Origin: Escherichia coli
Lineage (GTDB): Bacteria > Pseudomonadota > Gammaproteobacteria > Enterobacterales > Enterobacteriaceae
Assembly: GCF_041886205.1 (NCBI RefSeq)
Contig: NZ_CP169029.1
Reading direction: 5' to 3' (one strand)
DNA length: 64,000 bases
Shown: piece after piece, positions 43,445 to 64,000 of the stretch
Position numbering within the stretch: position 1 is the first letter of the stretch
How the letters are laid out: each line of letters starts with the position of its first letter
Program-made: the position numbers and the translations under genes
The notes under the pieces: generated by a model
Told to the model about the DNA's origin: nothing
Databases searched by the model: none
What the model saw: only the letters and a program-made list of their open reading frames with translations

Positions 43445-43564
43445 GACTTTTTATACCATGGCAAGTGCCATGGCACGCAGTTTTTCGATGTCATTCGTGG
43501 TGTTGAGAGCGGAGATGTCCATACAGGGGAGCATACCACTCCGGATACGGATATTAATTATTTT

Positions 43565-43957
43565 TCAATTAGTTAGCAGTGTATTTTGCGTGTTTTCAGG
43601 GCGCAGTTCAGGTTCATTCTGCCAGACCCATTTCGTCAGGTCATGTCCCTTAACCTGCTGCCAGTCAACACCGGCAATCAGCCAGTTAAACTCGTCGGGA
43701 GTGAGGTGCCAGGCAGCATCATTTGCACATGGCCAGCGGAAGCTGCCTTTGTGCAGACGGCGGGTACACAACCACACCCCGTGTTTATCCCACCGGAGAA
43801 CTTTGATACGCGAACGGGCTTTGTTAACAAAGACGAAGGCGGCTCCCCCATGCCATATCGACCGGAGTTCATCCTGTATATACTGCGTCAGTGCGTCGAT
43901 GCCCCGGCGCATGTCAACAGGTTTAATTGCGATGAAGACATTATCAGGACTGAGCAT
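43565..43957 (-). CDS. tnpB: IS66-family TnpB
   Basis: Start MLSPDNVFIAIKPVDMRRGIDAL within ORF 43565..44251. Confidence 0.75.
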   Translation of the reverse strand: MLSPDNVFIAIKPVDMRRGIDALTQYIQDELRSIWHGGAAFVFVNKARSRIKVLRWDKHGVWLCTRRLHKGSFRWPCANDAAWHLTPDEFNWLIAGVDWQQVKGHDLTKWVWQNEPELRPENTQNTLLTN

Positions 43958-44273
43958 ATTTGAGCGCCCTGAAGACATCGGTAAGTTGTGACGGCTGACA
44001 GCACATCCGTACTCCACCGGGAAGGAGGAGCGTGACTGGCTCATTCGTGACGGGCTGTGGTACATCAGCATGCAGTGGTGGCGCAATATGAACGGGAAGA
44101 ACGGTCGGTTCATTTGCCCGGCGTTCAGCTTTTGCGACATCCTGCGGCCATTCGCGAAGTGATGTGAAGGGAATATCGTTGAGTTCACAGTATTGCTGAC
44201 GTGTAAGACCACTGGCGCGCCAGGCAGCACGTTGCTGCCTTTTCTGTTCAATGGTCCATCGGGGTTTTGACAT
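43944..44273 (-). CDS. tnpA: IS66-family TnpA
   Basis: 109 aa, MSKPRWTIEQKRQQRAAWRASGLTRQQYCELNDIPFTSLREW... Confidence 0.8.
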   Translation of the reverse strand: MSKPRWTIEQKRQQRAAWRASGLTRQQYCELNDIPFTSLREWPQDVAKAERRANEPTVLPVHIAPPLHADVPQPVTNEPVTLLLPGGVRMCCQPSQLTDVFRALKYAQS

Positions 44274-44357
44274 TGATTATCTCCGGTAAGTTGGTGAATG
44301 AATGTCGGTAATGCTAACTGACTGAAAATCTCTGTGAAGATGACTTCCCCGTAACGA

Positions 44358-45413
44358 CACCTTCTTTATCGCCTGCCGAATGACGCTGTTCAGCGATTCG
44401 ATGGCATTCGTCGTGTAGATGGCCTTGCGGATATCCGGTGGGTAACCGAAGAAGGTGTTGAGATTTTCCCAGTGTGTGCGCCAGCTCTTGCTGATTTGCG
44501 GGTATTTTTTATCCCAGACGCCTGCAAACTTATCCAACGCCATCAACGCAGCTTCCTCTGTCGGGGCCTGATATACCGCTTTCAGCCCGCTGGTGACGGC
44601 TTTGTAATCCTTCCACGACACGAATTTCAGGCTGTTGCGCACCATATGGATGATGCAGAGCTGAATATGCGTCTGCGGGTATACGCTATTTATCGCTTCC
44701 GGGAAGCCTTTCAGGCCGTCCACGCAGGCAATCAGGATGTCCTGAAGGCCACGATTTTTCAGCTCAGTCAGTACACCCAGCCAGAACTTTGCACCTTCAT
44801 TTTCTGCCAGCCACATACCCAGCAGCTCTTTCTGACCGTCGGTATTGATGCCCAGCGCGAGGAACACCGCTTTGTTAATGACACTCCCGCCGTGACGAAC
44901 CTTAACCACAATACAGTCAAGATAAACAATGGGATACAGTGCATCCAACGGTCGGTTTTGCCATTCAGAGACCTGTTCTTTAACCGCATCGGTCACTTTG
45001 GATATCAGCGTGGGCGAGACATCGGCGTCGTACATTTCTTTGAACGTGGCAACGATTTCCCGCGTAGTCATGCCTTTGGCATACAGGGACAAAATCTGGC
45101 TGTCCATCTGGGTGATGCGTGTCTGATGCTTCTTAATTAGTTGCGGTTCGAAGGTATTTTCACGGTCACGCGGCGTGTTAAGTTCGATCTCGCCATCATC
45201 GCACAATACCGTTTTTGACGAGTAGCCATTACGGGTATTAGAGCCTGATTTAGGAGCATTTTTCTCATGACCGAGATGGTCAGTCAGTTCTGCATTGAGC
45301 GCCGTTTCGACGGTAAGCTTTGTCAACATGCGTGAAAACTGGTTGAGGTCGGCTTCGGTTTTAAGGCCTTTGGCCAGTTCAGCCGCAAGAGCTTTAAGTT
45401 TCTTTTCGTCCAT
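44358..45413 (-). pseudogene. IS256-family transposase, 3'-truncated by IS66-family element 4
   Basis: ORF 44277..45413: MDEKKLKALAAELAKGLKTEADLNQF...; the native sequence ends at ...AIKK and the last 25 codons are read from the IS66 terminal repeat. Confidence 0.75.
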
Positions 45414-45718
45414 CGTTTGCCTGTCTCCGTTGTTGGAGTGAACATATCAAAAACAGGCAATTACACAATTTTAATTACAGTCTCTTCGGTTATTAACGAA
45501 ACTCAACAATAGCGCCTGGTTGTGAAACCAGTTTAACCATTTGAAGCTTAAACTCATTTGAAAATGATCTGCGGGGTTTTGCAGATAATGTTTTCTGTTC
45601 CATAACAGGTGTCCACTAGTTTTGAAGGTGGGCACCTACGTTACCAATACTGGCTTAATGTGTATTAGCTCAGACCTGATCTGACAGTTACCGGTTATTT
45701 ATACAGGTATCTGTCAGA

Positions 45719-46759
45719 TTACATCTGGCTTAAATTTTTCTCGACCCAGATGCGTTTTCCATCAAGTAACGTTTCCATTGGCGTCCGCCCATTGCACATT
45801 TTTCCCTGATGGGTTCGCTCATTATTATAGTGAGCCAGCCATTCATCAAGATCCGACTGTAATGTATCAAGATCGCCGTACAGTTTTTTACGGAACGTTA
45901 CCTGATAAAATTCGTTCAGGATTGTTTTATGGAACCGCTCGCAGATGCCGTTGGTCTGCGGGGACATCGCCTTTGTTTTCGTGTGTTCTATATCGTTTAT
46001 TGCCAGATAAAGCTGATAATCATGCTGCTCTACTTTGCCACAGTACTCCGTGCCTCTGTCGGTCAGTATTCTCAGCATCGGCAGGCCCTGAGACGCATAA
46101 AACGGCAGTACACGATCATTCAGTAAGTCAGCTGCGGTAATCGGTGTTTTGGTGACGTAAAGCTTACAGTGAGCCACTTTCGAGTACGTATCAACGAACG
46201 TCTGCTGATAAATACGCCCGACACCTTTCAGGTTGCCTACATAGAACGTGTCCTGCGAACCCAGATATCCAGGATGAGCCGTTTCGATTTCGCCACAGGC
46301 CTCGTCATCACTGGCTTTACGCTCCAGTGCTGCGATCTGGCTGTCAGTTAGCTCAATGCCATCACGGGCTACTTTTTCTTCCAGTGCTTTCAGACGTTTT
46401 TTGAAATTCTCAAGGTTATGGCGTAACAAGACAGAACGGACACCACTGCCGGAGATAAAAACGCCCTGTTTACGCAGCTCGTTGCTGGTCCGGTGCTGAC
46501 CGTGTGCCGGGAAAGCGACGGCGTAATCAACAACAGCCTGTTCAGTTGCCTCATCGGTACGGTTCTTAAGGTTAGGAGCGCGGCGACTACGATTAATCAG
46601 CGCATCCACACCGCCTTCATCGACCAGTTCGCGGTAACGATAAAACGTATCACGCGAAACGCCCATGATTTTACAGACTTTTGATTCGTTGCTGAGTTCT
46701 TCCGCCAGATTGAGCAAACCGGCTTTGTGTTTGATAACGGGATTGGTAGTATGAAGCAT
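45719..46759 (-). CDS. single-ORF DDE (integrase-core) transposase, IS481-family-like
   Basis: ORF 45719..46804; N-terminal HTH (...KVCKIMGVSRDTFYRYRELV...) and integrase-core region (...LTDRGTEYCGK...SPQTNGICERFHKTI...). Confidence 0.6.
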   Translation of the reverse strand: MLHTTNPVIKHKAGLLNLAEELSNESKVCKIMGVSRDTFYRYRELVDEGGVDALINRSRRAPNLKNRTDEATEQAVVDYAVAFPAHGQHRTSNELRKQGVFISGSGVRSVLLRHNLENFKKRLKALEEKVARDGIELTDSQIAALERKASDDEACGEIETAHPGYLGSQDTFYVGNLKGVGRIYQQTFVDTYSKVAHCKLYVTKTPITAADLLNDRVLPFYASQGLPMLRILTDRGTEYCGKVEQHDYQLYLAINDIEHTKTKAMSPQTNGICERFHKTILNEFYQVTFRKKLYGDLDTLQSDLDEWLAHYNNERTHQGKMCNGRTPMETLLDGKRIWVEKNLSQM

Positions 46760-46936
46760 GAGAGTTACCTCGTGTTTTGTATAAGGATTCGACACCCATA
46801 TCAAAACCGGTAACTCTCAACCTTTCAAGGCTCAGTGTTAGCGCCAATGATATAAGACAGTAATTCACCATTTGAATTGTCCGCTCCACCCAACATGTTG
46901 TTTCCTTGAGGTTCTCACACCAGAAAGGACATCAAC

Positions 46937-48906
<1,970 letters not shown>

Positions 48907-48992
48907 TCAAACAGCGGACATTAAAAATGGCGAAACGGTCATAAATCCTGGCGTTGACATCAGTGTCAGATCAAGTCGCGACTAATACACTT

Positions 48993-49024
48993 AATGGCTA
49001 CATACGGCGGTCAGTTTACGCTTA
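48993..49024. repeat. solo copy of the 32-bp IS66-type terminal sequence ATGGCTACATACGGCGGTCAGTTTACGCTTAC
   Basis: Identical to 13959..13990 (the terminus of IS66-family element 1) but flanked by unrelated sequence on both sides. Confidence 0.6.
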
Positions 49025-49317
49025 CGAAAGGACGAACTTTTCTAAGGGCTTTTTTCCTTAAGTGGGGCTTGGATATTCGGAGTGGATTGTATTTAAAACG
49101 AATATCCAAGCAATCAAACTCTAGTCTACAAAACACATAAATTCATGCACGTATCCATCCATGCTGTAGATAATCAGCTGTGATAATAGCAGCCGCTACT
49201 GAAGCAATTGAATGGAAAGCGTCGTCTTTTGTGCGTAACCGGCTCATTTAAACCGTCTGGTCTGTTTCCTCCGGCTCTACAAAAATAATGTCCATCATTT
49301 TTAATGGACACTATCGT

Positions 49318-49536
49318 ATGAAACACCGGACCTGGATCACTGAAGCTTTACGTCTTCACTTTGAAGAACATTTACCCCGGGTTGTGGCCGGGCGTCGCCT
49401 GGGTGTACCAAAATCAACAGTTTGTAGTATGTTCGTGCGCTTTCGGAGAGCTGGCCTTTCGTGGCCTTTGCCCGCAGGCATGTCGGAGCAGGAACTTGAT
49501 GCCTGCCTTTACGGACAATTTTCCACGGTACCAGTC
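49318..49536 (+). pseudogene. possible N-terminal fragment of an IS21-family IstA-like HTH, read in frame with the next tnpA
   Basis: MKHRTWITEALRLHFEEHLPRVVAGRRLGVPKSTVCSMFVRFRRAGLSWPLPAGMSEQELDACL resembles IS21-family IstA N-termini; it lies inside ORF 49288..49965. Confidence 0.35.
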
Positions 49537-49572
49537 GTACGTCCTGAAAGCACCGTTATATCCGAAGCCCCC

Positions 49573-49965
49573 GTGGTAAAAAAACGTCCCCGGCGGCCCA
49601 ACTTCCCTTATGAGTTTAAAATCGCCTTAGTGGAGCAGTCACTGCAGCCCGGAGCCTGTGTGGCGCAGATCGCCCGGGAAAACGGAATCAACGATAACCT
49701 GCTCTTCAACTGGCGCCATCAATACCGGAAAGGTGGCCTGCTGCCTTCCGGAAAAAATATGCCGGCACTGCTTCCCGTGACGTTAACGCCGGAGCCGGAT
49801 AATAAAATCCCGGCCCCCGCACAGGAACCAGAGCAGATAAATACACCGTCCGACAGTCTGTGTTGTGAGCTGGTTCTGCCGGCCGGAACTCTCAGGCTTA
49901 AAGGTAAACTGACGCCGGCGTTATTACAGACACTTATCCGCGAAATAAAAGGGAGCAGCCACTGA
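49573..49965 (+). CDS. tnpA: IS66-family TnpA (GTG start assumed)
   Basis: ...KKRPRRPNFPYEFKIALVEQSLQPGACVAQIARENGINDNLLFNWRHQY...; in-frame GTG at 49573. Confidence 0.65.
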   Translation: MVKKRPRRPNFPYEFKIALVEQSLQPGACVAQIARENGINDNLLFNWRHQYRKGGLLPSGKNMPALLPVTLTPEPDNKIPAPAQEPEQINTPSDSLCCELVLPAGTLRLKGKLTPALLQTLIREIKGSSH

Positions 49966-50312
49966 TGATATCTCTCCCTGCAGGTTCGCGTATCTGGCTG
50001 GTTGCAGGTATCACCGATATGCGAAATGGCTTTAACGGCCTGGCATCAAAAGTTCAGAACGTCCTGAAGGATGACCCGTTCTCCGGACACCTGTTCATCT
50101 TCCGCGGACGCCGGGGTGACCAGATAAAAGTGTTGTGGGCTGACAGTGACGGACTGTGCCTCTTCACCAAACGCCTGGAGCGGGGCCGCTTCGTCTGGCC
50201 AGTCACCCGTGACGGCAAGGTGCACCTTACTCCGGCTCAGTTATCCATGCTTCTTGAAGGTATCAACTGGAAGCACCCGAAACGAACGGAACGCGCTGGA
50301 ATCCGCATATAA
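49965..50312 (+). CDS. tnpB: IS66-family TnpB
   Basis: 115 aa, [31 protein letters not shown]... Confidence 0.85.
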   Translation: MISLPAGSRIWLVAGITDMRNGFNGLASKVQNVLKDDPFSGHLFIFRGRRGDQIKVLWADSDGLCLFTKRLERGRFVWPVTRDGKVHLTPAQLSMLLEGINWKHPKRTERAGIRI

Positions 50313-50331
50313 CCCGTTGTAAAGTGAGGAT

Positions 50332-51903
50332 ATGGACACCTCACTTGCTCATGAGAACGCCCGCCTGCGGGCACTGTTGCAGACGCAACAGGACACCATC
50401 CGCCAGATGGCTGAATACAACCGCCTGCTCTCACAGCGGGTGGCGGCTTATGCTTCCGAAATCAACCGGCTGAAGGCGCTGGTTGCGAAACTGCAACGTA
50501 TGCAGTTCGGTAAAAGCTCAGAAAAACTTCGTGCAAAAACCGAACGGCAGATACAGGAAGCACAGGAGCGAATCAGCGCACTTCAGGAAGAAATGGCGGA
50601 AACGCTGGGTGAGCAATATGACCCGGTACTGCCATCCGCCCTGCGCCAGTCTTCAGCCCGTAAACCGTTACCGGCCTCACTTCCCCGTGAAACCCGGGTT
50701 ATCCGGCCGGAAGAGGAATGCTGTCCTGCCTGTGGTGGTGAACTCAGTTCTCTGGGATGTGATGTGTCAGAGCAACTGGAGCTTATCAGCAGCGCCTTTA
50801 AGGTTATCGAAACACAACGTCCGAAACAGGCCTGTTGCCGGTGCGACCATATCGTGCAGGCACCAGTACCTTCAAAACCCATTGCACGCAGTTATGCCGG
50901 AGCGGGGCTTCTGGCCCATGTTGTCACCGGGAAATATGCAGACCATCTGCCGTTATACCGCCAGTCAGAAATATACCGTCGTCAGGGAGTGGAGCTGAGC
51001 CGTGCCACACTGGGGCGCTGGACAGGTGCTGTTGCTGAACTGCTGGAGCCGCTGTATGACGTCCTGCGCCAGTATGTGCTGATGCCCGGTAAAGTCCATG
51101 CTGATGATATCCCCGTCCCGGTCCAGGAGCCGGGCAGCGGTAAAACCCGGACAGCCCGGCTGTGGGTCTACGTCCGTGATGACCGTAACGCCGGTTCACA
51201 GATGCCCCCGGCGGTCTGGTTCGCGTACAGTCCGGACCGGAAAGGTATCCATCCACAAAATCACCTGGCCGGTTACAGCGGTGTGCTTCAGGCCGATGCT
51301 TACGGTGGTTACCGGGCGTTATACGAATCCGGCAGAATAACGGAAGCCGCGTGTATGGCTCATGCCCGGAGAAAAATCCACGATGTGCATGCAAGAGCGT
51401 CCACCTACATCACCACGGAAGCCCTGCAGCGTATCGGTGAACTGTATGCCATCGAGGCAGAGGTCCGGGGCTGTTCAGCAGAACAGCGTCTGGCGGCAAG
51501 AAAAGCCAGAGCCGCGCCACTGATGCAGTCACTGTATGACTGGATACAGCAACAGATGAAAACACTGTCGCGTCACTCAGATACGGCAAAAGCGTTCGCA
51601 TACCTGCTGAAACAGTGGGATGCACTGAACGTGTACTGCAGTAATGGCTGGGTGGAAATCGACAACAACATCGCAGAGAACGCCTTACGGGGAGTGGCCG
51701 TAGGCCGGAAAAACTGGATGTTCGCGGGTTCCGACAGCGGTGGTGAACATGCGGCGGTGTTGTACTCGCTGATCGGCACATGCCGTCTGAACAATGTGGA
51801 GCCAGAAAAGTGGCTGCGTTACGTCATTGAACATATCCAGGACTGGCCGGCAAACCGGGTACGCGATCTGTTGCCCTGGAAAGTTGATCTGAGCTCTCAG
51901 TAA
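50332..51903 (+). CDS. tnpC: IS66-family TnpC transposase (523 aa)
   Basis: Full length with CPACGGEL motif and conserved C-terminal ...[28 protein letters not shown]... Confidence 0.85.
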
Positions 51904-51906
51904 ATA

Positions 51907-53367
51907 TCAATACGGTTCTGACGAGTCGCTTACTTTTGTGCTGTCGCCAAAATCACTAATCCCTCTCACAATAAGCGCTGGAACTCCCTGCTTTTCGCAG
52001 GCATCAAATACCCCATAGGCTTCCATTTCGGCAACACAGGCTTTGTCATGAAGCGACCTGAAACGTTCTAGTAAAGCAGGATCGCGGATAAGAAGCTCTC
52101 CTGATGCGATAGTGGCTGAAGAAACAATTATCCCAGCAGCTACGTCTCCAGCCTGCGAATTTTCAGGCATTTCGAGTCCTATAGCCTGTGCCCGTTCGCC
52201 AAGACGTGCGGATAGTGACGTTGTTGCAAGGTAAGTATTGAGGTTTTGTTTAGTTGGCATATGGAGACATAATATTTCAGGTCGAGGAGCAAACTTCCCA
52301 CCTTCTAATGCGGCTGCACTTTCATAATAAATGACACGCTCAGAAATAATGACTTCACCTAGCACCATTTTTTCTCTCAACCCCGCCGCAATCCCCATCA
52401 TCAAGACTTTTTGGGGTTTGAATTCCGACAACAACATGGTAGTAATAGCTGAAGCATTCACATTTCCAGCACTAGCGAAAGACGCCACTATGCCAGTTAC
52501 TGGGCCATCTGAGCGTTGTATGGATGTGGACCAGAAATGTATTCCATTTGATGTGAGCCGCGGAGATTCATCATCAGCTATGCCAAATACTTTCTTGGCT
52601 GCAGCAAGTTCAACTGGTAGAGCTGTCAAAATCAACACATTTGGAGTATGCAGCAACTGTTGTGCAGCCCATTCAGCTTTAAGCAATTCAACTGCGATTT
52701 CTGAAAGTCGTTCCAGTCCATAGTAAGGTTCCTGTAACGATAAAGTGTCGAGCTGATTTTTTACGGCTTCACCGGTGCAAGGGAACATAGACAGCGGCTC
52801 TGCATAAAAACGTGCATGTAGGCCTAAAGCACCTTTTCCGTCATCGCAAATTCCCCCAAGCTCCAAGTCAAACGGTAATATGGGGTGGTTGGCTTTACGC
52901 ATTTTACTCGCACGATCGGAAACGCCTTTTCCTCCACCTAATGCAATCATGGCTGTGGCAGCATCAACCTGCTCGCTTCCAATATTTCCTCCAGTAATGA
53001 GATCATCATCTAGATAGCTGACATCAGCAAATCTAGCTGCCTGAAGTTTACGAATAAGCATCCGATTCTCTTCAGACATTTTCTCCCGCATTGCAGAACG
53101 CGACGTGACGATCTTGAGTTGGTGGGCTGGCGTATAATTCTCCATTAAATCTACAGCTTCTTTTACTATCGTCCAGTCGAAGGTCAGGAGATCCCCATTT
53201 TCATTAACAGGTTCTCCTGCCAAATAGACAACTAGTCCCACATTTGCATCAAGGATGCTCTTCGTCAATGCTCGAACGAAACTATGTGCTCGATCAATAT
53301 AAAGTTTTTCTGTATTTTTGGATATACTTCCAGCGATCAGAACATACTCATTATTAGTATTTGTCAT
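51907..53367 (-). CDS. two-domain defence-effector candidate: N-terminal Rossmann-like putative ligand-sensing domain (SLOG-like?) fused to a C-terminal nucleoside-phosphorylase (PNP/MTA-nucleosidase) domain; the 3' end is replaced by IS66 terminal sequence
   Basis: ORF 51907..53382, ATG at 53367. C-terminal half ...KVLMMGIAAGL...GEVIISERVIYYES...CVAEMEAYGVFDACEKQGVPALIVRGISDFGDSTK is phosphorylase-like; N-terminal half has ...YVLIAGSIS...VGLVVYLAG...IALGGGKGV... The last 8 codons (VSDSSEPY) are read from the reverse complement of the IS66-5 terminal repeat. Confidence 0.6.
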   Translation of the reverse strand: MTNTNNEYVLIAGSISKNTEKLYIDRAHSFVRALTKSILDANVGLVVYLAGEPVNENGDLLTFDWTIVKEAVDLMENYTPAHQLKIVTSRSAMREKMSEENRMLIRKLQAARFADVSYLDDDLITGGNIGSEQVDAATAMIALGGGKGVSDRASKMRKANHPILPFDLELGGICDDGKGALGLHARFYAEPLSMFPCTGEAVKNQLDTLSLQEPYYGLERLSEIAVELLKAEWAAQQLLHTPNVLILTALPVELAAAKKVFGIADDESPRLTSNGIHFWSTSIQRSDGPVTGIVASFASAGNVNASAITTMLLSEFKPQKVLMMGIAAGLREKMVLGEVIISERVIYYESAAALEGGKFAPRPEILCLHMPTKQNLNTYLATTSLSARLGERAQAIGLEMPENSQAGDVAAGIIVSSATIASGELLIRDPALLERFRSLHDKACVAEMEAYGVFDACEKQGVPALIVRGISDFGDSTKVSDSSEPY

Positions 53368-53396
53368 CACAATTCTTCCCAAAGGAGTATTACTTG

Positions 53397-54296
53397 TTAC
53401 TGTTTAAGTAAGGCATAGATTTCATCCTTGTTTTTTAATGCTAACTGTAATGCTTCCGGCGCCTGATGTGACTGAGTCTCTGTAAGATTTAACTGGAAAA
53501 GAAGGTAGTGCAGCAAAGCTTGTCGGCATTCCAGATGGATTTCTCCGTCGATCATTGCATAATCTCTCTCAATAAGGTTTCGTTGAGCAAGGCATAGTCC
53601 AGGATGCGCTATAAGAATAATTTTGATGAATGTATTCCACGCTAAATCACCATTAGCCCTCTCTTCATCGGGTCCGGCGTTTTGTGCCTGCACTATTCGC
53701 GACAATAAAAAGTCCCTATATTCACCACGTTTATGACACCATGCTCTTGTGTGCCAGCGATAACCATCATGGACTAATGAATGAGGAGTCAAGGTTCGTT
53801 TACTGCCTTGAGGGTCACTCATGGATTGATAAATAACATGAACAGCCTCATTTTCACGTATAGCTCGTAATATTTGACTTACGACATCAGTGTCCAGTCT
53901 ACGTAACAGTCGTGGAACCGCTGCAACGGGTGAGCGCCAGCCCAGAAAGCTTCCAAAATGAATTTCAGGTTGTATTGCCACTCGCAGCAAATCATTCAGA
54001 TAACATTCCAGAGAGCTGGTCATATAAACTGGCTGAAACAATTTCGTTGAACGGTAAACTCGGGAACTCATATCGTACTCAAGATTATCGGGGGCTAACT
54101 TAGTATATTCACTAAGATCCAGCGAAGCTTGAGGTACTGATATGCCGAAAAAATCAGTGAGGCTGCTACGATTGATTTGCCCATCCCATCGAAGTCGATA
54201 ATCAATAAATTCAAGCCGACGCTCTTGGCCCCATCTCGCACCTTGCCGTCCTTTTTGGCTGTCTTGCTTATCCCCTTCTCTAAAGTTATCTGGCAT
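53397..54296 (-). CDS. WYL-domain transcriptional regulator (CapW/BrxR-like)
   Basis: 299 aa; WYL-type core ...DGYRWHTRAWCHKRGEYRDFLLSRIV...; stop is 29 nt upstream of the phosphorylase-gene start; divergent from the CBASS operon. Confidence 0.65.
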   Translation of the reverse strand: MPDNFREGDKQDSQKGRQGARWGQERRLEFIDYRLRWDGQINRSSLTDFFGISVPQASLDLSEYTKLAPDNLEYDMSSRVYRSTKLFQPVYMTSSLECYLNDLLRVAIQPEIHFGSFLGWRSPVAAVPRLLRRLDTDVVSQILRAIRENEAVHVIYQSMSDPQGSKRTLTPHSLVHDGYRWHTRAWCHKRGEYRDFLLSRIVQAQNAGPDEERANGDLAWNTFIKIILIAHPGLCLAQRNLIERDYAMIDGEIHLECRQALLHYLLFQLNLTETQSHQAPEALQLALKNKDEIYALLKQ

Positions 54297-54395
54297 CTTA
54301 GTTCCCGGTAGCGTATAAAAAATATCTCAATATAAAAAGTAGACGCAGAATAAAAACTGAACGTATAATAATGCTACGCTATAGGGCGGTAAGGT

Positions 54396-54433
54396 GCAAC
54401 CATCACCTCAGTCACTTCTGAGGTGATGGTTGC
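54396..54433. promoter_or_regulatory. perfect 16-bp inverted repeat with 6-bp spacer (GCAACCATCACCTCAG-TCACTT-CTGAGGTGATGGTTGC); candidate operator in the divergent promoter region
   Basis: Lies between the WYL gene start (54296) and the nucleotidyltransferase start (54466), 32 bp upstream of the latter. Confidence 0.5.
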
Positions 54434-54465
54434 AGTTTTCATGAATGATCTTCGGAAGGATGTGA

Positions 54466-55410
54466 ATGCCACTCACTAATACTCAGATCCGATACTACGA
54501 CAGCAATGTACTGCGTTTGCCTAAGGATAAGCGTGAAACCTACAATGCCCAAGTAGATCGGCTTATTACAGCGTTACGTAAAAAACTGAAAGATCAGGAT
54601 AAAATAACAATAAAACGTGTCGTTAAAGCTGGTTCGTTTGCTAAACACACTATTCTACGCAAAACCTCAGACAGTCAGGTCGATGTGGATGTTGTGTTTT
54701 ACGTTAGTGGAGAGAAAGTTGCTGAGGAAACCTTCGCAAGCCTGAGCGAAAAAATTTACGAAGCCTTACTTAAAATGTATCCCAACAAAGCTGTAGAAGA
54801 TTTCGAGATTCAACGTAAGGCTGCTACTGTTTCTTTTGTCGGGACTGGATTAGATGTTGATATTGTTCCCGTCATCGAAAATCCGGACAAAGAAGGCTAT
54901 GGATGGCAGTTTGACCGTATCGATGGTTCGAAGACAGAGACTTGTGCTCCTTGCCAGATCAAATTTGTGAAAGATCGCAAAGACCAAGACCCGGACTTTC
55001 GTACTTTAGTACGCTTAGCTAAACGTTGGCGTACCAACATGGAATGCCCACTTAAGTCATTTCATATAGAACTAATCATGGCTCATGTACTAGAAGTCAA
55101 TGGAAAAGATGGTTCGTTGGAGAAGCGATTTCGGGATTTTCTACTGTACATTGCTGAATCAGGATTAAAAGAAGTTATCACCTTCCCTGAAAATAGCACT
55201 ATACCAGCATTTTCCCATCCAGTTGTCATACTGGATCCTGTTTGCGATACGAACAACGTTACCAGCCGTATTACCGAGGATGAGCGAAAAGAGATCGTCC
55301 GGATTGCTGAGGAAAGTTGGGCGACGGCAAATTTTGCGTCGGTAGAAGGAGACTATGATATCTGGAAGGAGCTGTTTGGTCGTTCATTTAAAGTGGAGGA
55401 TACAGCATGA
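54466..55410 (+). CDS. cGAS/DncV-like nucleotidyltransferase (CBASS CD-NTase), 314 aa
   Basis: GGAAGGA RBS; nucleotidyltransferase signature ...VKAGSFAKHTILRKTSDSQVDVDVVFYV... (GS motif and acidic DVD); first gene of a four-to-five-gene operon. Confidence 0.7.
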   Translation: MPLTNTQIRYYDSNVLRLPKDKRETYNAQVDRLITALRKKLKDQDKITIKRVVKAGSFAKHTILRKTSDSQVDVDVVFYVSGEKVAEETFASLSEKIYEALLKMYPNKAVEDFEIQRKAATVSFVGTGLDVDIVPVIENPDKEGYGWQFDRIDGSKTETCAPCQIKFVKDRKDQDPDFRTLVRLAKRWRTNMECPLKSFHIELIMAHVLEVNGKDGSLEKRFRDFLLYIAESGLKEVITFPENSTIPAFSHPVVILDPVCDTNNVTSRITEDERKEIVRIAEESWATANFASVEGDYDIWKELFGRSFKVEDTA

Positions 55411-55895
55411 GTTACTCCTCAACTGAAACATCGACTTATACCACAACAGACGTTGAAGCAGTCATGCGACGCATCACAGCTGACTTAGTGATGATTGCCG
55501 CCAGTACCGGTGCGATAACTGAATCAAAAGCACGTGAGTATGCTCACGATATAGAACTCTTAGCAAAAAATGGATATCTGGATTACGTCGATGTGACCCT
55601 TATAAGCAATGGCGTTGAACAGAAAGCAACCCGGTTTCATGTGAATGAGTCCGGAGAATTGGCAAATGACAGACCTGGAGACGCTCGTTGGCCGAGAATT
55701 CAGGGGGCTTATCTGCGGATTGTTGTGAACAACCGGAGTACCTACGATCAGGCTGCGAGGCAAAAGCTTTCAGGTAAGATGAAAATATCGTGGTCGCCAT
55801 GTAGTGATGACATCAGTCATTCAGGTTTGACCCAAAGTGGTGGTCGTGAATATTCCAGCAATGGTTATGGTATGCAACGTAAGGATTACAATTAA
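55407..55895 (+). CDS. small CBASS accessory protein, HORMA-like by position (162 aa)
   Basis: ATGA overlap with the nucleotidyltransferase gene; size and position between CD-NTase and AAA+ ATPase match Cap7-type HORMA proteins; no motif can be verified by eye. Confidence 0.45.
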   Translation: MSYSSTETSTYTTTDVEAVMRRITADLVMIAASTGAITESKAREYAHDIELLAKNGYLDYVDVTLISNGVEQKATRFHVNESGELANDRPGDARWPRIQGAYLRIVVNNRSTYDQAARQKLSGKMKISWSPCSDDISHSGLTQSGGREYSSNGYGMQRKDYN

Positions 55896-56791
55896 TGAGC
55901 AAGAGTAGTGTTTTCGACTCAGTGATTGATTTACCGCAGCGCGAACTGACAGAGCGAGAGAACATTTTACTTGGCTTTGAAAGTCGTTATGAGAGTGTCC
56001 ACAACCAACTCAACCTGCTGCTTAACCAAGGGCAACTCCTTGACTGGAGCAAGAAGTACCATAAGAGCGTTTTACCGCTCTGCAAGCTCGTTGCTGAGCA
56101 GTATCCGCTTGTTATTTTTCATGGTGATGTAGGAACAGGTAAAACAGCAACTGCTGAGTGCATCGCGAATCGTCTTGTCCGCGAGTCTCGCACTGAAGAT
56201 TCGGCCCTCTTTAAGCTCAGCAATCGGGTCCGTGGTTCCGGAAAAGTGGGGGAGATGGGGACGCTACTAACTCAGGCATGGGCAGAAGTGTGCGAGGCTG
56301 CGGGTAAAAATCGCAGAGCAATACTGATTATTGATGAAGGGGATTCAATTGCAGCTTCCCGTTCTCAAAACCACAGCCATCATGAAGATAAAGTAGCAGT
56401 AAATACTTTAATTCAAGGAGTGGATGAGCTACGAAAATTTGGCGGCCGGGTTGTGGTAATTTTATGTACTAATAGACTATCCGTCCTTGACCCTGCACTT
56501 CGTAGGCGAGCAGCGATTGTCGAAGAATTTACTCGCCCCGGGCTCACAGAACGAGAATCGCTTTTTCGCATGGATCTTGGAGGGATGGGATTGTCAGATA
56601 GTCAATATCGTCAACTAGCGGTGGCAACTGGTGAGAAAGAAAATCTGCCAGCATGGACATACTCTGATATCCGTACGCGCCTCTATCCCGCAGCAATGTC
56701 AAGAGCGTTTCCTGAACGGGCTTTAAGTTTTAATGATTTGATGGAATTATTGAAAATAATGAGGCCTTCCCCCGTCATGGGAGATATATAA
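55895..56791 (+). CDS. AAA+ ATPase, TRIP13/Pch2-like (Cap6-like), 298 aa
   Basis: Walker A GDVGTGKTATAECIANRL, Walker B ILIIDEGD; start overlaps the preceding stop. Confidence 0.6.
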   Translation: MSKSSVFDSVIDLPQRELTERENILLGFESRYESVHNQLNLLLNQGQLLDWSKKYHKSVLPLCKLVAEQYPLVIFHGDVGTGKTATAECIANRLVRESRTEDSALFKLSNRVRGSGKVGEMGTLLTQAWAEVCEAAGKNRRAILIIDEGDSIAASRSQNHSHHEDKVAVNTLIQGVDELRKFGGRVVVILCTNRLSVLDPALRRRAAIVEEFTRPGLTERESLFRMDLGGMGLSDSQYRQLAVATGEKENLPAWTYSDIRTRLYPAAMSRAFPERALSFNDLMELLKIMRPSPVMGDI

Positions 56792-56887
56792 GGCCCCATT
56801 TCTTAATCAACTGATATACTATAAAAATCAACTCCAATTCCGGTACATTTGTTGATTTACGGTGCACTTCTTGCAAGCAGGAACTAT

Positions 56888-57451
56888 ATGAGAACTGATA
56901 AAGAAATTTTCGTTTCAGTTGATGTGGAAACATCAGGCCCTATTCCGGGGAAATACAGTATGTTATCGATAGGTGCTTGTGTGGCATTTGAACCATCAAA
57001 GCAATTTTCATGTTACCTTAAACCGATATCTGAAGATTTTATCCCTGCGGCTATGGAAGTGACTGGGTTATCGCTGGAGAAGTTGCACGTCGATGGTTTG
57101 GATCCTGTTGATGCAATGGTTCAATTTAAAGAATGGATTAATTCGGTCGTAAAGGAAGATGAGACTGTAGTTTTTGTTGGTTTCAATGCTTCATTTGACT
57201 GGAGCTTTATTAATTATTATTTCCATGTATATTTAGGTGATAATCCTTTTGGCATCGCAGCACTCGATATAAAATCAATGTATTTTGGCGTTTCTCACGC
57301 CTCATGGAGATTAACACGTTCTAGTGAAATAGCGAAAGTTGTCAAACCTGAGACATATGGTGATCATGATGCATTACATGATGCCCGATATCAGGCTGAA
57401 CTATTCCGGTTGATCGATAAATTGAGCGAGAAGAAAAAATTAGATCGATGA
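56888..57451 (+). CDS. DEDD-family 3'-5' exonuclease (DnaQ-like; CBASS Cap18-like accessory)
   Basis: Exo motifs [10 protein letters not shown] (DxE) and ...[10 protein letters not shown]...; ATG at 56888 with GCAGGA RBS (ORF track start 56849 is a TTG). Confidence 0.6.
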
Positions 57452-57538
57452 GTTGCGCAAATAATCATATGGAATTTTCAAAGATTAATTTACTGGAAGT
57501 ACAGTGAATTACCTTATGACAAGAGTTCTGGTGGATAT

Positions 57539-57994
57539 ATGAATGACGAATTTAGCTGTGCAAGTGAGCATATCTGGAAATATTTCGAATTGCATGCACA
57601 ACAAAGAATGACTGTTTTCAATTTTTACATTGCGATAACAGGACTTCTTGCTGCTGGCATTGGGGTTACTCTCCAACAAGGAGGGAAGTATGTATTATTT
57701 ACTTCACTTATGGGGGTGTTTGTAGCATTTATTTCATTTATTTTCTGGAAATTGGATCAGCGAGTGTCGATTTTAATAAAAAATGCTGAAATTGCTCTAC
57801 AAGATCTTGAATGTCAATTTTCCAATGAAAAGCTGAGGATAATCACTAAAGATAATAGCAGTCATTTGCTAAACTTAGGCATTAGTTCTTCTTGGACTTA
57901 TGGAAAATGCTTCCGCATTTCATTTGTTATAGTAGGTCTTACTGGGATATTACTTGCGATTACACCTTTTCTGATGAAAGTCTCGACTTCTTAA
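57539..57994 (+). CDS. small multi-pass membrane protein (151 aa); candidate membrane-disrupting effector
   Basis: Three hydrophobic helices (VFNFYIAITGLLAAGIGVTL, YVLFTSLMGVFVAFISFIFW, ISFVIVGLTGILLAITPFL); last gene of the operon; its stop directly abuts an IS2-like end. Confidence 0.5.
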   Translation: MNDEFSCASEHIWKYFELHAQQRMTVFNFYIAITGLLAAGIGVTLQQGGKYVLFTSLMGVFVAFISFIFWKLDQRVSILIKNAEIALQDLECQFSNEKLRIITKDNSSHLLNLGISSSWTYGKCFRISFVIVGLTGILLAITPFLMKVSTS

Positions 57995-59330
57995 TACATT
58001 TGAGCCGGCCCCTTGAAACGCCAGACAGTGGATGTATCTTAAAATAAGAGATAGGCTTGGATATATGTCTAACACTAGTTCTAATTTTGAGATGACAGGA
58101 ACTTTGCTGGGGCAGGGGCTTCGTAAACGTAAAACTCCTCAGGAAAAAATTGACATTATTCAGCAGACAATGGAGCCTGGCATGACGGTGTCCCATGTGG
58201 CGCGTTTGCACAGTATTCAGCCCGGCCTGTTATTTAAGTGGAAAAAACAATATCTGGAAGGAAGTCTCACTGCTGTTGCTGCCGGAGAGGATGTTGTTCC
58301 TGCCTCAGAACTGGCTGCCGCTATAAAACAAATAAAAGAGTTACAGCGCTTTCTGGGTAAAAAACCATGGAAGTTGAGATCCTCAAAGAAGCAGTGGAGT
58401 ATGGTCAGTCGTAAAAATGGATAGCGCATGCGCCCTTGTTGCCAACGGACAAGGAATAACCATGGTAATCCGTATTCTGGACGTGTCGCGTGCGTAACTG
58501 GCACAACGGATGAAAATATCTGGTAATAAGCCGGATAAACGTCGTCGCAGATGTGATGAGGCTGCGGATGCGGAAGTGTTAGCACGCATCCTTGATATCA
58601 TCAGCGATATGCCGACATATGGCTATCGTCGTGTCCGGGCTATTCTCAGACGGCAGTCTTAACGAAGGACTGCAGTTCGTGAATGCAAATCGCGTTTATC
58701 GAATAATGAGCGAGAATAACCTGTTGTTATTACATGACAAACCTTCACGACCGCAGAGGGAACATAAAGGCCCGAATATCGGTGAAGGAAAGCGACCCGC
58801 GCTGGTGTGCCGATGGCTTTGAGTTCGGTTGTGATGATGACGAAAAACTGCGTGTCACGTTCGCACTGGACTGTTGCGATCTTGAATCCATAGACTGGGC
58901 CGCAAGCACGGGAGGTTATGGCAAAGCAACGGTGCAGGATGTCATGTCAGGAGCGATAGAAAAACGCTTTGGCGATAGACCGGGATGGCCCATCCAGTGG
59001 CTGACCGATAACGGTTCAGCTTATACAACTCATGAAACACGGCAGTTCGCCAGAGAGTTGAATCTGGAGCTCTGCACGACGGCAGTCAGTAGCCCTCAGA
59101 GTAATGGAATGAGAGAACGGTTCGTGAAAACGATGAAGAGCGATTACATCAGTATCATACCTAAACCGGACGTGTTAACGGCAGTAAAAAACCTTGCGGA
59201 GGCGTTCGAACACTATAACGAATAGCATCCTCATGGTGCCTTGGTTATCTCTCACCGAGGGAATATCAACGTCACTCGGTAACGTTAACTTAAGCTCAAC
59301 GGCTGTCTGGATATAGTGGTTCAAGGGCAC
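57995..59330 (+). mobile_element. degenerate IS2-like (IS3-family) element with fragmented orfA/orfB
   Basis: Left end resembles the IS2 left inverted repeat; orfA-like ORF 58032..58424 (...[78 protein letters not shown]...) and an orfB fragment 58734..59225 lacking the N-terminus. Confidence 0.7.
58734..59225 (+). pseudogene. IS2-like OrfB (InsD-like) transposase fragment
   Basis: ...[27 protein letters not shown]...[47 protein letters not shown]... matches the C-terminal two-thirds of InsD. Confidence 0.75.
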
Positions 59331-59692: not shown

Positions 59693-62600
59693 GTGAAGTA
59701 TCAGATAGTAGGTGGTGCTGGCCTGCACCGCAGCGAAACCAAAACAGTTGATATGATGGTTAAGCAGTTACCAGATAGTTGGTTTGGCTATGCTGGCTTA
59801 GTTGTTACTGATAGCCAAGGGTCGATGGAAATCGATATGCTAATTATTACTGCTGACCGTCTGCTATTAGTCGAGCTTAAAGAGTGGAATGGTAACATCA
59901 CATTTGAAGGGGGGAAGTGGCTGCAAAATGGTAAGTCACGAGGCAAAAGTCCCTATCAGATCAAGCGTGAGCATGCACTGCGACTAAAAGATTTGTTGCA
60001 GGAAGAGTTATCTCGTAAGCTGGGTTACTTTTTGCATGTTGAGGCTCATGTAGTGCTGTGTGGCACAGCTGGTCCTGAAAACTTGCCATTAAGTGAGAGG
60101 CGCTATGTTCATACCCGTGATGAATTCTTGACTATAGGTAACCCAAAAAATTACGAAAAGCTGGTGCAACACACTAACTTTTTTCATCTTTTTGAAGGGG
60201 GAAAGCCTCGACCAAATTCTGATGAGGCATTACCTATAATTAAGTCCTTCTTTGAAGGACCAAAAGTCAGGCCTTTGCCACTAAAAGAAAGCGGTTATCT
60301 TGCGAACGATAAGCCATTCTTTAGTCACCCTCACATGGTCTACAACGAATTCAGGGCTACCCACAAAGACAATAGTCAACACAGAGGTCTGCTACGGCAG
60401 TGGAACTTTGATGCCTTGGGTGTAGCAAACGCAATGCAAACATTGTGGGCTGAGATAGCTCTGCGTGAGACTCGAGTCGGTCGCCTAGTTCGTCATGGCA
60501 GCGCAACTATGCAGGATTATATGTTGCGTGCTGTAAGGGAACTATCCGAGGAGGATATAACTGATGATGCCCGTGAGCTGTATGAGTTACGCCGTAGTTT
60601 TAGCCGATTAGATGAGATTCTAGATAGCGAAGCTGACGGATGGAGTAAATCTGAGCGTATTGATCGCGTTCGTGCATTATTAGCTCCATTCTCGGAATTA
60701 CATAGCTTGGGTATCAGTCATTGTGATATTGACCCGCACAATCTATGGTACGCAGGGGATCAGAAGAGCATTGTCGTTACTGGCTTTGGCGCAGCCTCAC
60801 TGGAGGGACATAATAGCCTAGAGTCATTGCGTCCGATATTGCAAAGTGCTCCATATATTTTGCCCGAAGATGCTTTTGAAGAAGCAGTTGAGCCCTATCG
60901 CCTAGATGTATTCATGTTGGCTGTAATTGCTTATCGTATTTGTTTTGCAGGTGAATCATTACTGACTCCTGGACAGATGCCTGAATGGAGAGCTCCATTA
61001 ACTGATCCTTTTAGCGGTATTCTAAATAGCTGGTTTGAGCAAGCTCTTAACCTTGAGCCAAGTAAACGCTTTCCACGTGCGGACATAATGCTCAATGAGT
61101 TTAATGCAGCTACTAAGGAACATAGCCAAGAATTTGATGAAGCTAACCAGATTTATCAAGAATTAAAGCAAAACAAATTCTTTCGCGAAGGGATGAACAG
61201 CGTTGGTGTGTTAATTGAGTTTCCTCCACTTCCTGAACAGTTGTCTATGGTTTACTCTGCTCTTGCTGCTATTGCTACGACTGGCAGCATCAGTTATCAC
61301 TGTGAACAAGGTGGGAAAGCTCTGCAGGTAAAATTGTGGGATGGTGTTATTTTGACCCCTCAACAACCTGGTGTTAACCGCCGTATCCACGCTTTTAAGC
61401 AACGGATCGATAAGCTTACGCATATAAATCTGCCAACTCCTAAGGTGCAGTCCTATGGACTATTAGGACAAGGCGGCTTGTATGTAGTGAGCGAGTATGT
61501 GGATGGCCTACCGTGGTCACAGTTTATTGCTGAGAACGTGTTAGTACAATCCCAACGTTTTACAATTGCGGAAAAGTTGATCAACACCATTCATGCTTTT
61601 CATGAAAAGCAGTTACCTCATGGAGATCTTTGCCCAGAGAAACTGCTGGTACAAGTCGGGGAGCAGACAGTAATTACTCTGATTGGATTGCTTGAATTCA
61701 GTGATGAATTAACTGCAGATAATCGCTACCAGCCAGAGAATCCCGAAAGTACTGATGCTTTTGGGCGAGATTGCTTTGCAGTATATCGTATGGTGGAGGA
61801 GCTATTTAGTGAAGATATGCCAGTACTGGTGCAGGCTGAGCTAGAACGCGCAAAACAAACCGTTGACGGTATACCTATCGCGCTCGATCCTTTGCTGCAG
61901 TCAATTCGAGCACCGGAACAAGCTGAGATTAATCAAGTTGTGGCGTCTGAGTCACAGGATAAGGTAATTCCTGTTTGCTGGGGCACAGATGATTGGCCGC
62001 AAGAAGTGAAGCTTCTAGAACAAAATGATGGGATCTATTATTTTCAATGTAACTGGTCATCGAACCCACGCTTTGCGCATGAATTGCGTTGTTACATCAC
62101 TGGCCTAGGAGAGCGGCTATTGATAGACTTAGATCCTGATAATCGCACTATTAATAGAATAGTGTATGAAAAAGGATTATCGATCGAAGAAAGTATAAAG
62201 GCTGGTAAATATTCCCAGGCTAAAATTAATACTCAACTTTCATTACAACGTGGCTCACTTAATCAGCGTAATACTTTTATTGAACTACTGTTTAACCTCG
62301 AGCCAGTAATTGATGCCATCATTGAGCGAGCTAATCCTAATCAAGAGATGGATGAAGATGACTTCGATAGTAGTGAGTCAAGCCCAATTGAGTTATGGCA
62401 GGCATTATCTGATACAGAAGTAGACCTACGAGATATAGTCAACATCGACTCTACTGACTTTCAGGAATCACCGAGTGGTTGCTTACTCTACCCATATACT
62501 ACGGAATCCGGTGCTGACCTCAGCTTTGAACTTGATGATAAGATCATTGTTTATATTAAAGATAAGCGTGAATCAGTGCAATTAGGGGAATTGCAGCTAA

Positions 62601-64000
62601 GTGAGACTACGCCGAGTCTATTGGCTATTCGCTTTGATTTTGATGCTGCTCGTAAGCGAATTAGTAGCGGCAGCCAGCTACAATTGGAATCGATCCGTGA
62701 CAAATCATCAAGAGAGTTGCGTCAAAGAGCCCTTCAACGGGTAATTGAAAACAAAGCAGAGATCCAGCATCTGCCACAGTATTTTGATTACCACCAGAAA
62801 CCCTGCATGCAGCAAATGCAACCGCGGCCATCCGCGGAGACATTACGCGCACTTTATGATCAGCCTGGACAACGTTTTAATGAACAGCAGCTAATGGCAT
62901 TTCAACAGTTGGTCGAGTTTGGACCAGTTGGAGTTCTGCAGGGACCACCTGGAACAGGTAAAACAACATTTATTTCAAAATTTATTCACTATCTGTATCA
63001 ACATTGCGGTGTGAATAACATTCTTTTGGTCGGGCAATCCCATGCCTCTGTTGATAATGTAGCCATCAAGGCTCGAGAGCTCTGCCATACGAAAGGAATG
63101 GAACTGGATACAGTACGTATTGGTAATGAACTTATGATTGATGAGGGTATGCTAAGTGTTGCAACTAAAGCTCTTCAGCGACAGATTCAGCATAAATTTC
63201 ACCGTGAATATGATCTGCGAGTTAGCTCCCTAGGAAAGCGCCTAGGGATGGCCCCATTATTAGTCCAACAGTTATGTCAGTTACATCGTACGCTGAATCC
63301 CTTGATGGTGACATATGGCCAATATAGCCGTGAGCTGGATAAAGTAGAACAAATAAAGAGTAGTAGTATTAGTCATCAAGAGCGACTGGCTGAATTATTA
63401 GAACAAAGCAATCAGCTTAAACTGCGAACACAAGAAATTATTAACTCAATATTCGATGACAGCTTGCTGAAAACTCTTGTCTATGATGAAACCTTGATAA
63501 GACAGTTGGCTGAGCAAGTTGCCATACAATACAATTATAACAATCCAGAGAACCTTGAACGTTTTATGCAGCTATTGGAAATGAGCCAAGAGTGGATGGA
63601 TGTATTACGCGGCGGCGAGGCTGGATTTGATCGATTTATGTTCAAAAGTAAGCGATTGGTTTGTGGAACTCTTGTTGGTGTTGGGAATCGTCGACTAGAA
63701 CTAGCTGAGTCCAGCTTTGATTGGGTAATAGTTGATGAGGCTGGCCGAGCACAAGCTGCTGAATTGATGGTAGCGCTGCAATCAGGCAAGCGGGTGCTGT
63801 TGGTAGGGGATCATAAACAATTGCCACCATTCTATCATCAACAGCATCTTAAGTTAGCCTCTAAGAAATTAGAACTCGGGAAAGGGATCTTTTATGAGTC
63901 TGATTTTGAACGTGCTTTTAAAGCAACAGGCGGCGTAACACTCGATACTCAATATCGAATGGTAGAACCAATTGGCGAGTTAGTATCGGAGTGCTTTTAC
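59693..64000 (+). CDS. giant multidomain protein (>1,435 aa, continues past the window): N-terminal NERD nuclease-like domain, two protein-kinase-like domains, and a C-terminal superfamily-1 (Upf1/DNA2-like) helicase; defence-system candidate
   Basis: GTG at 59693 after AGGAGA RBS; frame verified stop-free at sampled stretches (59882-59940, 60062-60360, 60662-60780, 61502-61620, 61862-61980, 62162-62250, 62921-62970). NERD-like VKYQIVGGAGLHRS...EIDMLIITADRLLLVELKEWNG; kinase catalytic-loop-like LHSLGISHCDIDPHNLW and VTGFGAAS; helicase motifs GPPGTGKT, VIVDEAGRA, LVGDHKQLPP. Not in the ORF track because there is no stop in the window. Confidence 0.7.
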   Translation, partial: MKYQIVGGAGLHRSETKTVDMMVKQLPDSWFGYAGLVVTDSQGSMEIDMLIITADRLLLVELKEWNGNITFEGGKWLQNGKSRGKSPYQIKREHALRLKDLLQEELSRKLGYFLHVEAHVVLCGTAGPENLPLSERRYVHTRDEFLTIGNPKNYEKLVQHTNFFHLFEGGKPRPNSDEALPIIKSFFEGPKVRPLPLKESGYLANDKPFFSHPHMVYNEFRATHKDNSQHRGLLRQWNFDALGVANAMQTLWAEIALRETRVGRLVRHGSATMQDYMLRAVRELSEEDITDDARELYELRRSFSRLDEILDSEADGWSKSERIDRVRALLAPFSELHSLGISHCDIDPHNLWYAGDQKSIVVTGFGAASLEGHNSLESLRPILQSAPYILPEDAFEEAVEPYRLDVFMLAVIAYRICFAGESLLTPGQMPEWRAPLTDPFSGILNSWFEQALNLEPSKRFPRADIMLNEFNAATKEHSQEFDEANQIYQELKQNKFFREGMNSVGVLIEFPPLPEQLSMVYSALAAIATTGSISYHCEQGGKALQVKLWDGVILTPQQPGVNRRIHAFKQRIDKLTHINLPTPKVQSYGLLGQGGLYVVSEYVDGLPWSQFIAENVLVQSQRFTIAEKLINTIHAFHEKQLPHGDLCPEKLLVQVGEQTVITLIGLLEFSDELTADNRYQPENPESTDAFGRDCFAVYRMVEELFSEDMPVLVQAELERAKQTVDGIPIALDPLLQSIRAPEQAEINQVVASESQDKVIPVCWGTDDWPQEVKLLEQNDGIYYFQCNWSSNPRFAHELRCYITGLGERLLIDLDPDNRTINRIVYEKGLSIEESIKAGKYSQAKINTQLSLQRGSLNQRNTFIELLFNLEPVIDAIIERANPNQEMDEDDFDSSESSPIELWQALSDTEVDLRDIVNIDSTDFQESPSGCLLYPYTTESGADLSFELDDKIIVYIKDKRESVQLGELQLSETTPSLLAIRFDFDAARKRISSGSQLQLESIRDKSSRELRQRALQRVIENKAEIQHLPQYFDYHQKPCMQQMQPRPSAETLRALYDQPGQRFNEQQLMAFQQLVEFGPVGVLQGPPGTGKTTFISKFIHYLYQHCGVNNILLVGQSHASVDNVAIKARELCHTKGMELDTVRIGNELMIDEGMLSVATKALQRQIQHKFHREYDLRVSSLGKRLGMAPLLVQQLCQLHRTLNPLMVTYGQYSRELDKVEQIKSSSISHQERLAELLEQSNQLKLRTQEIINSIFDDSLLKTLVYDETLIRQLAEQVAIQYNYNNPENLERFMQLLEMSQEWMDVLRGGEAGFDRFMFKSKRLVCGTLVGVGNRRLELAESSFDWVIVDEAGRAQAAELMVALQSGKRVLLVGDHKQLPPFYHQQHLKLASKKLELGKGIFYESDFERAFKATGGVTLDTQYRMVEPIGELVSECFY

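Follow-up and report, generated by a model that had tools for sequence, protein, structure and literature searches.

A type III CBASS locus of the upec-117/KTE188 type in Escherichia coli with an IS66-family insertion in its effector gene cap17

Do two adjoining minus-strand genes in a 64,000-nucleotide stretch of E. coli DNA (the window) form the effector arm of the neighbouring CBASS, or are they an independent, undescribed abortive-infection module? An earlier sequence-only reading had left both options standing; it recognised a WYL-domain regulator followed by a protein joining a sensor to a nucleoside-phosphorylase domain, and found no obvious match of either the sensor or the WYL pairing to Cap17. 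We are highly confident that the two genes are the capW-cap17 arm of the known upec-117/KTE188-type E. coli type III CBASS, with the effector disrupted by an insertion sequence (IS) and this copy probably disabled. The pair consists of:

53397..54296, minus strand: capW, transcriptional repressor of the CBASS bidirectional promoter with a presumed wHTH-WYL-WCX architecture (WYL domain and identity to upec-117 CapW)
51907..53367, minus strand: cap17, disrupted allele, with 478 native codons (TPALS sensor and PNP/ATP-nucleosidase domain, Asp472 present) followed by 8 IS-derived codons, VSDSSEPY, and a stop

The cap17 ORF was listed as opening at TTG 53382 and ends at 51907. Translation evidently begins at the ATG at 53367, 29 nt downstream of capW, which confirms the two ORFs and their spacing as first described; the length of 487 aa given at the time becomes 486 aa from this codon, as compared to 505 aa for native Cap17. 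In Pfam searches, residues 7-230 matched PF18178 ("ATP nucleosidase Cap17-like, N-terminal"; Cap17-like_N, i.e. TPALS) over model positions 3-232 of 232 with E 3.7e-65, and residues 245-476 matched PNP_UDP_1 (PF01048, E 3.9e-19). The latter bears out the PNP-type C-terminal half. For the N-terminal half, the GGGKG motif and the SLOG-like character hold (G144-G148 are invariant or nearly so across 35 homologues), whereas the family is not unclear: this is the TPALS sensor that defines Cap17. Residues 10-181 gave a weaker match to the PADLOC model of a CBASS TIR effector (E 3.2e-12), which fits the literature name of the N-terminal domain. Against the PADLOC CBASS "PN-superfamily" effector model PDLC00759, the protein scored E 2.6e-245 over profile positions 1-478 of 506, a coverage that already points to the absence of the C-terminus. 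The C-terminal domain, whose phosphorylase catalytic residues had been named as a point to check, carries the catalytic Asp472 within RGISDFGD, aligned with the catalytic SD motif of MTAN.

RefSeq names this gene "MTA/SAH nucleosidase". NCBIfam yielded MTAN and futalosine-hydrolase matches only, and since these lie far under the curated cut-offs (74.6 bits as against 169 for MTAN), the RefSeq name is a label at the level of the fold and not of the function. A sequence search of the PDB with Cap17 likewise returned housekeeping MTANs only and no solved Cap17, in agreement with Foldseek against the PDB.

An NCBIfam profile search gave no match for CapW or Cap19. The 299-aa product of the upstream ORF is a WYL regulator, as had been recognised (PF13280, E 5e-17). 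It is identical at 298/299 positions to upec-117 CapW (WP_001534693.1, from CP054230.1), the protein that defined the CapW family (PMC9122588), and shows no amino acid difference to the copy in E. coli ZYB39. From its near-identity to this crystallographically and biochemically defined family member we infer that the window protein has the wHTH and WCX domains as well. According to Blankenchip et al., CapW accompanies 160 CBASS systems (PMC9122588).

Divergently from capW-cap17, five genes are encoded on the plus strand between 54466 and 57994:

54466..55410, plus strand: cdnC (CD-NTase); PADLOC cyclase PDLC00808, E 6.9e-124; 311/314 identical to upec-117
55407..55895, plus strand: cap7 (HORMA); PADLOC HORMA, E 7.5e-81; 161/162 identical to the CP054230.1 copy
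55895..56791, plus strand: cap6 (TRIP13-like AAA+ ATPase); PADLOC TRIP13, E 5.7e-125; 295/298 identical to the CP054230.1 copy
56888..57451, plus strand: cap18 (3'-5' exonuclease); PADLOC exonuclease, E 2.4e-90; 187/187 identical to upec-117
57539..57994, plus strand: cap19 (small transmembrane protein); 148/151 identical to upec-117 Cap19; no PADLOC match

CD-NTase, HORMA and TRIP13, the components that characterise type III CBASS, are all present at the locus. Among 5,426 complete E. coli genomes searched by megablast, five chromosomes carry a counterpart of window positions 51933-58100 at 99.3-100% identity. One of them is CP054230.1 (69873-76528; locus 99.3% identical), the source record of the cloned and published upec-117 CBASS, with the genes named Cap17, CapW, CdnC, Cap7, Cap6, Cap18 and Cap19 (PMC9122588). 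Cap19 is needed for protection in that system (PMC9122588). The layout of the upec-117 type III CBASS, with capW-cap17 divergent from cdnC-cap7-cap6-cap18-cap19, is identical in the window. This published layout and the PADLOC effector match speak for one of the two earlier suggestions, namely that the protein serves the CBASS next to it as effector. What has to be given up is the view that sensor domain and WYL pairing do not match Cap17: PF18178 is named after Cap17, and at 99% identity the protein corresponds to the Cap17 that has been studied (473 of the 478 retained residues are identical to the upec-117 protein). Sensor, regulator pairing and module are none of them new; what the window carries is a published effector, in an allele disrupted by an IS, next to its published regulator.

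The regulatory site of the system is conserved as well:

54351..54380, plus strand: CapW operator, 29/30 match to the 30-bp probe, overlapping the -10 element TATAAT (54364-54369) of the cdnC promoter (-35 at 54340)

The 30-bp duplex was shown to bind Ec CapW (PMC11662680), and within the window it has this single match, with one mismatch. In a promoter scan of the capW/cdnC intergenic region, the overlapped -10 belongs to the sole strong promoter-like site.

The cdnC leader further contains a 17-bp terminator-like hairpin for which no Rfam match was obtained there. The capW-cdnC intergenic region of a Pseudomonas relative (see below) has weak inverted repeats only, with 75-83% complementarity. 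Conceivably, CBASS expression is subject to a further, unreported level of control through this hairpin; the hairpin and the specific IS insertion are the only points about the locus that go beyond the papers cited here.

The function of the arm can be deduced from its near-identical relatives. CapW is a homodimeric repressor of the bidirectional promoter, acting on the core operon and most likely on capW-cap17 too (PMC9122588), and binding of single-stranded DNA to its WYL domain frees it from the operator (PMC11662680). Cap17 of KTE188 is an ATP nucleosidase converting ATP, and weakly dATP, to adenine and ribose-5'-triphosphate (Rousset et al. 2023, bioRxiv 10.1101/2023.01.24.525353). During P1 infection ATP and dATP fall in CBASS-expressing cells, and the D472A mutation abolishes this depletion (bioRxiv 10.1101/2023.01.24.525353); in upec-117, Cap17 D472N abolished protection against lambda (PMC9122588). 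That the N-terminal domain of Cap17 binds the CD-NTase product is a prediction (bioRxiv 10.1101/2023.01.24.525353). If these steps, established in the near-identical published system except for the CdnC product and TPALS binding, which are predicted there, are carried over to the window by virtue of 99% identity, CapW dimers on the palindromic operator over the -10 would repress cdnC-cap7-cap6-cap18-cap19, and most likely capW-cap17 too. Single-stranded DNA arising from DNA damage or phage induction would bind the WYL domain and release CapW, upon which CdnC, controlled by HORMA and TRIP13, would synthesise the predicted cyclic oligonucleotide. Its predicted binding to the SLOG-like TPALS domain would switch on the PNP domain of Cap17, which would cut the N-glycosidic bond of ATP (weakly that of dATP) to give adenine and ribose-5'-triphosphate, so that the phage is starved and the cell arrested. 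Into this arm an ISCro1-like IS66 element has inserted after codon 478 of cap17, with the standard 8-bp duplication, and has removed the conserved C-terminal helix of the PNP fold.

The insertion can be delimited to the nucleotide:

49143..49226, minus strand: displaced 3' fragment of cap17, codons 479-505 (translation DDAFHSIASVAAAIITADYLQHGWIRA) and the native stop, colinear with positions 5918-6000 of the ZYB39 locus (L001)
49227..49234: left copy of the 8-bp target-site duplication, TTTTGTGC, flanking the IS
49235..51933, plus strand: ISCro1-like IS66-family element of 2,699 bp, with tnpA (49288-49965), tnpB (49965-50312) and tnpC (50332-51903); termini GTAACCGG.../GTAAGCGA...
51934..51941: right copy of the duplication, TTTTGTGC, corresponding to cap17 codons 476-478

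The products of tnpA, tnpB and tnpC comprise 225, 115 and 523 aa, and the ends of the element (GTAACCGGCTC on the left, GTAAGCGACTC on the right) are typical of IS66, with GTAA termini. An uninterrupted locus is found in E. coli ZYB39 (NZ_CP098234.1), which is 100% identical to window positions 43226-49234 and 99.99% identical to 51933-59000; in ZYB39 the two adjoin directly and share 9 bp, i.e. the site is empty there, without this IS. The sequence TTTTGTGC occurs once in the ZYB39 locus and on both sides of the IS in the window. Native cap17 sequence ends after K478 (window position 51934), and the right IS terminus supplies VSDSSEPY and the stop in place of the last 27 residues. The sequence-only reading was exact in assigning the last eight codons to an IS66 terminus; its statement that the native C-terminus is lost applies to the protein, whereas in the DNA this part has been displaced by 2.7 kb. 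Of the 5,426 complete E. coli genomes in the megablast set, the five with this CBASS all lack the IS/cap17 junction.

As to the origin of the element, ZYB39 has at another site a copy with ISCro1-family annotation that shares 98.6% identity with it. The 39 differing positions rule out that this is the same copy moved. No second copy that could have served as donor is present in the window, where the sole other match is 72% identical (15433-15967).

The window gene is a disrupted cap17 allele and not a member of a different family; what does the protein lose? Across 35 homologues of 34-83% identity, A486, A490, A491 and D496 within the lost residues 479-505 are invariant, and H483 is nearly so. 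In an AlphaFold2 model of Cap17 built on this alignment (mean pLDDT 90.9), residues 481-501 form a single helix with a block pLDDT of 96-97. Structural superposition of the PNP domain takes in MTAN chains in their entirety, at target-normalised TM scores of 0.74-0.82, and sequence alignments of Cap17 with MTAN extend through the terminal-helix segment. Homologues of full length measure 503-533 aa, and those few entries that are shorter either miss a whole domain or stem from short contigs. A complete PNP fold including the C-terminal helix is absent in window Cap17. To judge from conservation and the model, the removal of this entire helix of the core fold has probably left an unstable or inactive enzyme. 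Because a catalytically dead Cap17 abolishes defence in upec-117, the window CBASS is, by analogy, probably disabled.

The truncated protein retains the whole sensor domain and all catalytic residues up to K478, D472 included, and may have some residual or altered activity. It is unlikely, though, that the terminal helix is dispensable and that Cap17 is still a working effector of a functionally intact CBASS. Such a reading can point to the residues kept through D472 and the invariant K478, to an open frame with a short 8-aa tail, and to the native start and upstream region; the deleted part, however, belongs to the core fold and is predicted with confidence to be a helix of 21 residues (four of them invariant), through which the MTAN chains align and which falls within the length of 503-533 aa common to all full-length family members retrieved.

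A bolder proposal would give truncated Cap17 a new role, in which a stable but dead TPALS domain soaks up the signal or poisons oligomers and, separately, the cdnC leader hairpin provides a second layer of CBASS control; we regard this combination as a long shot. The new role taken by itself, a signal sponge binding the cyclic oligonucleotide or a dominant-negative subunit, would make of the effector a damper, encoded by the host, on the very system to which it belongs. We consider it very improbable: its support consists of the untouched sensor domain (residues 7-230) and the CapW-controlled promoter under which the gene still stands, a misfolded PNP domain would more likely lead to degradation, and the absence of the insertion from all five CBASS-bearing complete E. 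coli genomes gives no hint of retention by selection.

The disrupted-effector reading also agrees with the company that Cap17 keeps elsewhere. The genomic context was sampled for three homologues of 38-63% identity, and all three adjoin CD-NTase genes (in the metagenomic case a nucleotidyltransferase-like gene with a weak match). The Pseudomonas homologue (63% identity) has capW-cap17 divergent from cdnC-HORMA-AAA-exonuclease, as in the window, and its CapW orthologue has WHD_BrxR, WYL and BrxR_CTD domains. In Burkholderia gladioli (44% identity), cap17 comes first in a co-directional cap17-cdnC-HORMA-AAA-exonuclease array without a WYL gene. The metagenomic homologue (38% identity) has as neighbours a ThiF/E1 gene and, in divergent orientation, a nucleotidyltransferase-like gene with a weak match to PF07528 DZF_N; from this weak match and the E1 neighbour we tentatively read the locus as a type II-like CBASS. 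These contexts therefore place Cap17 among the components of CBASS; its pairing with a WYL regulator is an already known extra that some systems have and others lack. The N-terminal domain is thus a known sensor and its homologues sit in CBASS loci, the outcome that the sequence-only reading had itself set out as deciding for an ordinary Cap17-type effector. Its other suggestion, an independent WYL-regulated abortive-infection module whose sensor-PNP protein is not a CBASS effector, is hardly credible for a locus of the published upec-117 operon type: the pair does lie on the strand opposite to the CBASS core genes, and PNP effector domains also occur in Detocs, Avs and pAgo (bioRxiv 10.1101/2023.01.24.525353), but the N-terminal domain is Cap17-like_N, CapW and Cap17 are about 99% identical to a system in which CdnC-dependent protection requires Cap17, the CapW operator sits in the shared promoter, and the homologues adjoin CD-NTase genes, in B. 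gladioli even without a WYL gene.

In annotation, "WYL domain protein" and "MTA/SAH nucleosidase" say less than capW and cap17 (ISCro1-like IS66-disrupted) of a type III CBASS, which are the labels the locus should bear; the CBASS of the strain should be entered as probably non-functional. Outside annotation the importance is slight; the case adds to those in which a toxic abortive-infection effector has been knocked out by an IS, here inside an IS-rich defence/virulence island.

Among known systems, the housekeeping nucleosidases MtnN/MTAN share the fold of Cap17 (Foldseek E 1e-17) and the same ISD motif with the catalytic Asp. They differ from it in sequence (about 20% identity), in that Cap17 has an extra sensor domain of 240 aa, and in the substrate, which is ATP for Cap17 according to Rousset et al. 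An identity as a SAVED-type CBASS effector, SAVED having been named as an example of a known sensor, was rejected, the sensor domain being PF18178; Pfam detects no SAVED domain, only PF18178 and PF01048. DtcC of Detocs has a PNP effector domain of the same clade and the same chemistry as Cap17, but in DtcC a histidine kinase feeds a phospho-receiver domain that acts as the sensor, whereas the window protein combines a TPALS sensor with a CD-NTase partner. The identity as DtcC was rejected as well: Pfam finds no receiver domain in window Cap17, and the locus has no histidine kinase gene. On the side of the regulator, the BrxR proteins are relatives of CapW. CapW of upec-117 is placed divergently as in the window, where the operator, lying across the -10, agrees at 29/30 positions with the probe that was bound in vitro; the window protein differs from the type CapW by one substitution (Q105R), and the operator from the published probe by a T to A exchange at 54361. 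The closest relative of the effector is Cap17 of upec-117/KTE188 (Rousset et al. 2023; Blankenchip et al. 2022, PMC9122588), which shares with the window protein the domain pair PF18178 and PF01048, the numbering, D472 and the place downstream of capW. The window protein is unlike it in lacking residues 479-505, instead of which it carries VSDSSEPY, and in comprising 486 rather than 505 aa.

The CBASS is located in a defence island, since a gene for MkoA of the Mokosh anti-phage system starts about 1.7 kb downstream of its core gene cap19:

59693-64000 (continuing past the window end), + strand, mkoA, Mokosh anti-phage system (PADLOC PDLC03921)

The match to the PADLOC profile (E = 0) covers profile positions 2-1395 of 1607. 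MkoA combines an N-terminal PglW/MAD6-like kinase region with a C-terminal SF1 helicase; the RefSeq label of the gene reads only 'AAA domain-containing protein'.

In the leader of the CBASS core gene cdnC, downstream of the -10 element controlled by the repressor CapW (54364-54369) and upstream of the cdnC ATG (54466), we found a hairpin at 54395-54434 (+ strand) with a perfect 17-bp stem and a 6-nt loop, followed by GTTTTCATGA. The RNA fold of the surrounding region (54376-54470) has a predicted energy of -41.4 kcal/mol (z -5.0). The hairpin looks like a terminator or attenuator. There was no Rfam match at this site, and the Pseudomonas capW-cdnC intergenic region has no strong hairpin equivalent to this stem. 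The words 'hairpin' and 'terminator' are both absent from the text of Blankenchip 2022 (PMC9122588), the paper on CapW and the CBASS of upec-117 (CP054230.1). In upec-117 itself, one loop base differs from the window, the rest of the hairpin being identical.

Further RNA features, one of them followed by two ORFs, were identified elsewhere in the window:

8159-8282, + strand, STnc490, an Hfq-binding sRNA (Rfam RF01405, 141.7 bits, full-length match)
39673-39957, + strand, group II intron RNA domains D1-D4 (Rfam RF02001, 130 bits; RF01998, 50 bits)
40003-41294, + strand, two overlapping ORFs after the group II intron RNA domains

The STnc490 match sits within the mobile-element-rich island. The second of the two ORFs is the counterpart of a gene annotated as 'reverse transcriptase domain-containing protein' in ZYB39 (NZ_CP098234.1), an E. 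coli strain with the same locus. The region 39673-41294 resembles a group II intron whose maturase is split or degenerate, not a defence RT.

IS traffic is the main mode of evolution of this island. Outside insertion differences, ZYB39 and the window are 99.9-100% identical. ZYB39 carries an IS100 (IS21 family, ~1.95 kb) at about 10650 (10650-10656) and an ISCro1 copy at the site equivalent to 37791-37798, both absent from the window, whereas the window has an extra 1.3-kb insert (29555-30891), which carries a 372-aa ORF (29603-30721) and interrupts a long hemagglutinin-repeat/CdiA-type gene. Immediately upstream of the disrupted effector gene cap17 lies a cluster of transposase genes (43226-48906), comprising IS66 tnpB/tnpA, a truncated IS256-like ISEc39, IS481 and IS21 istA/istB. 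This arrangement is likewise present in ZYB39, but in upec-117-type strains IS3 and IS110 elements occupy the flank instead; the CBASS cassette has thus been moved into different IS contexts.
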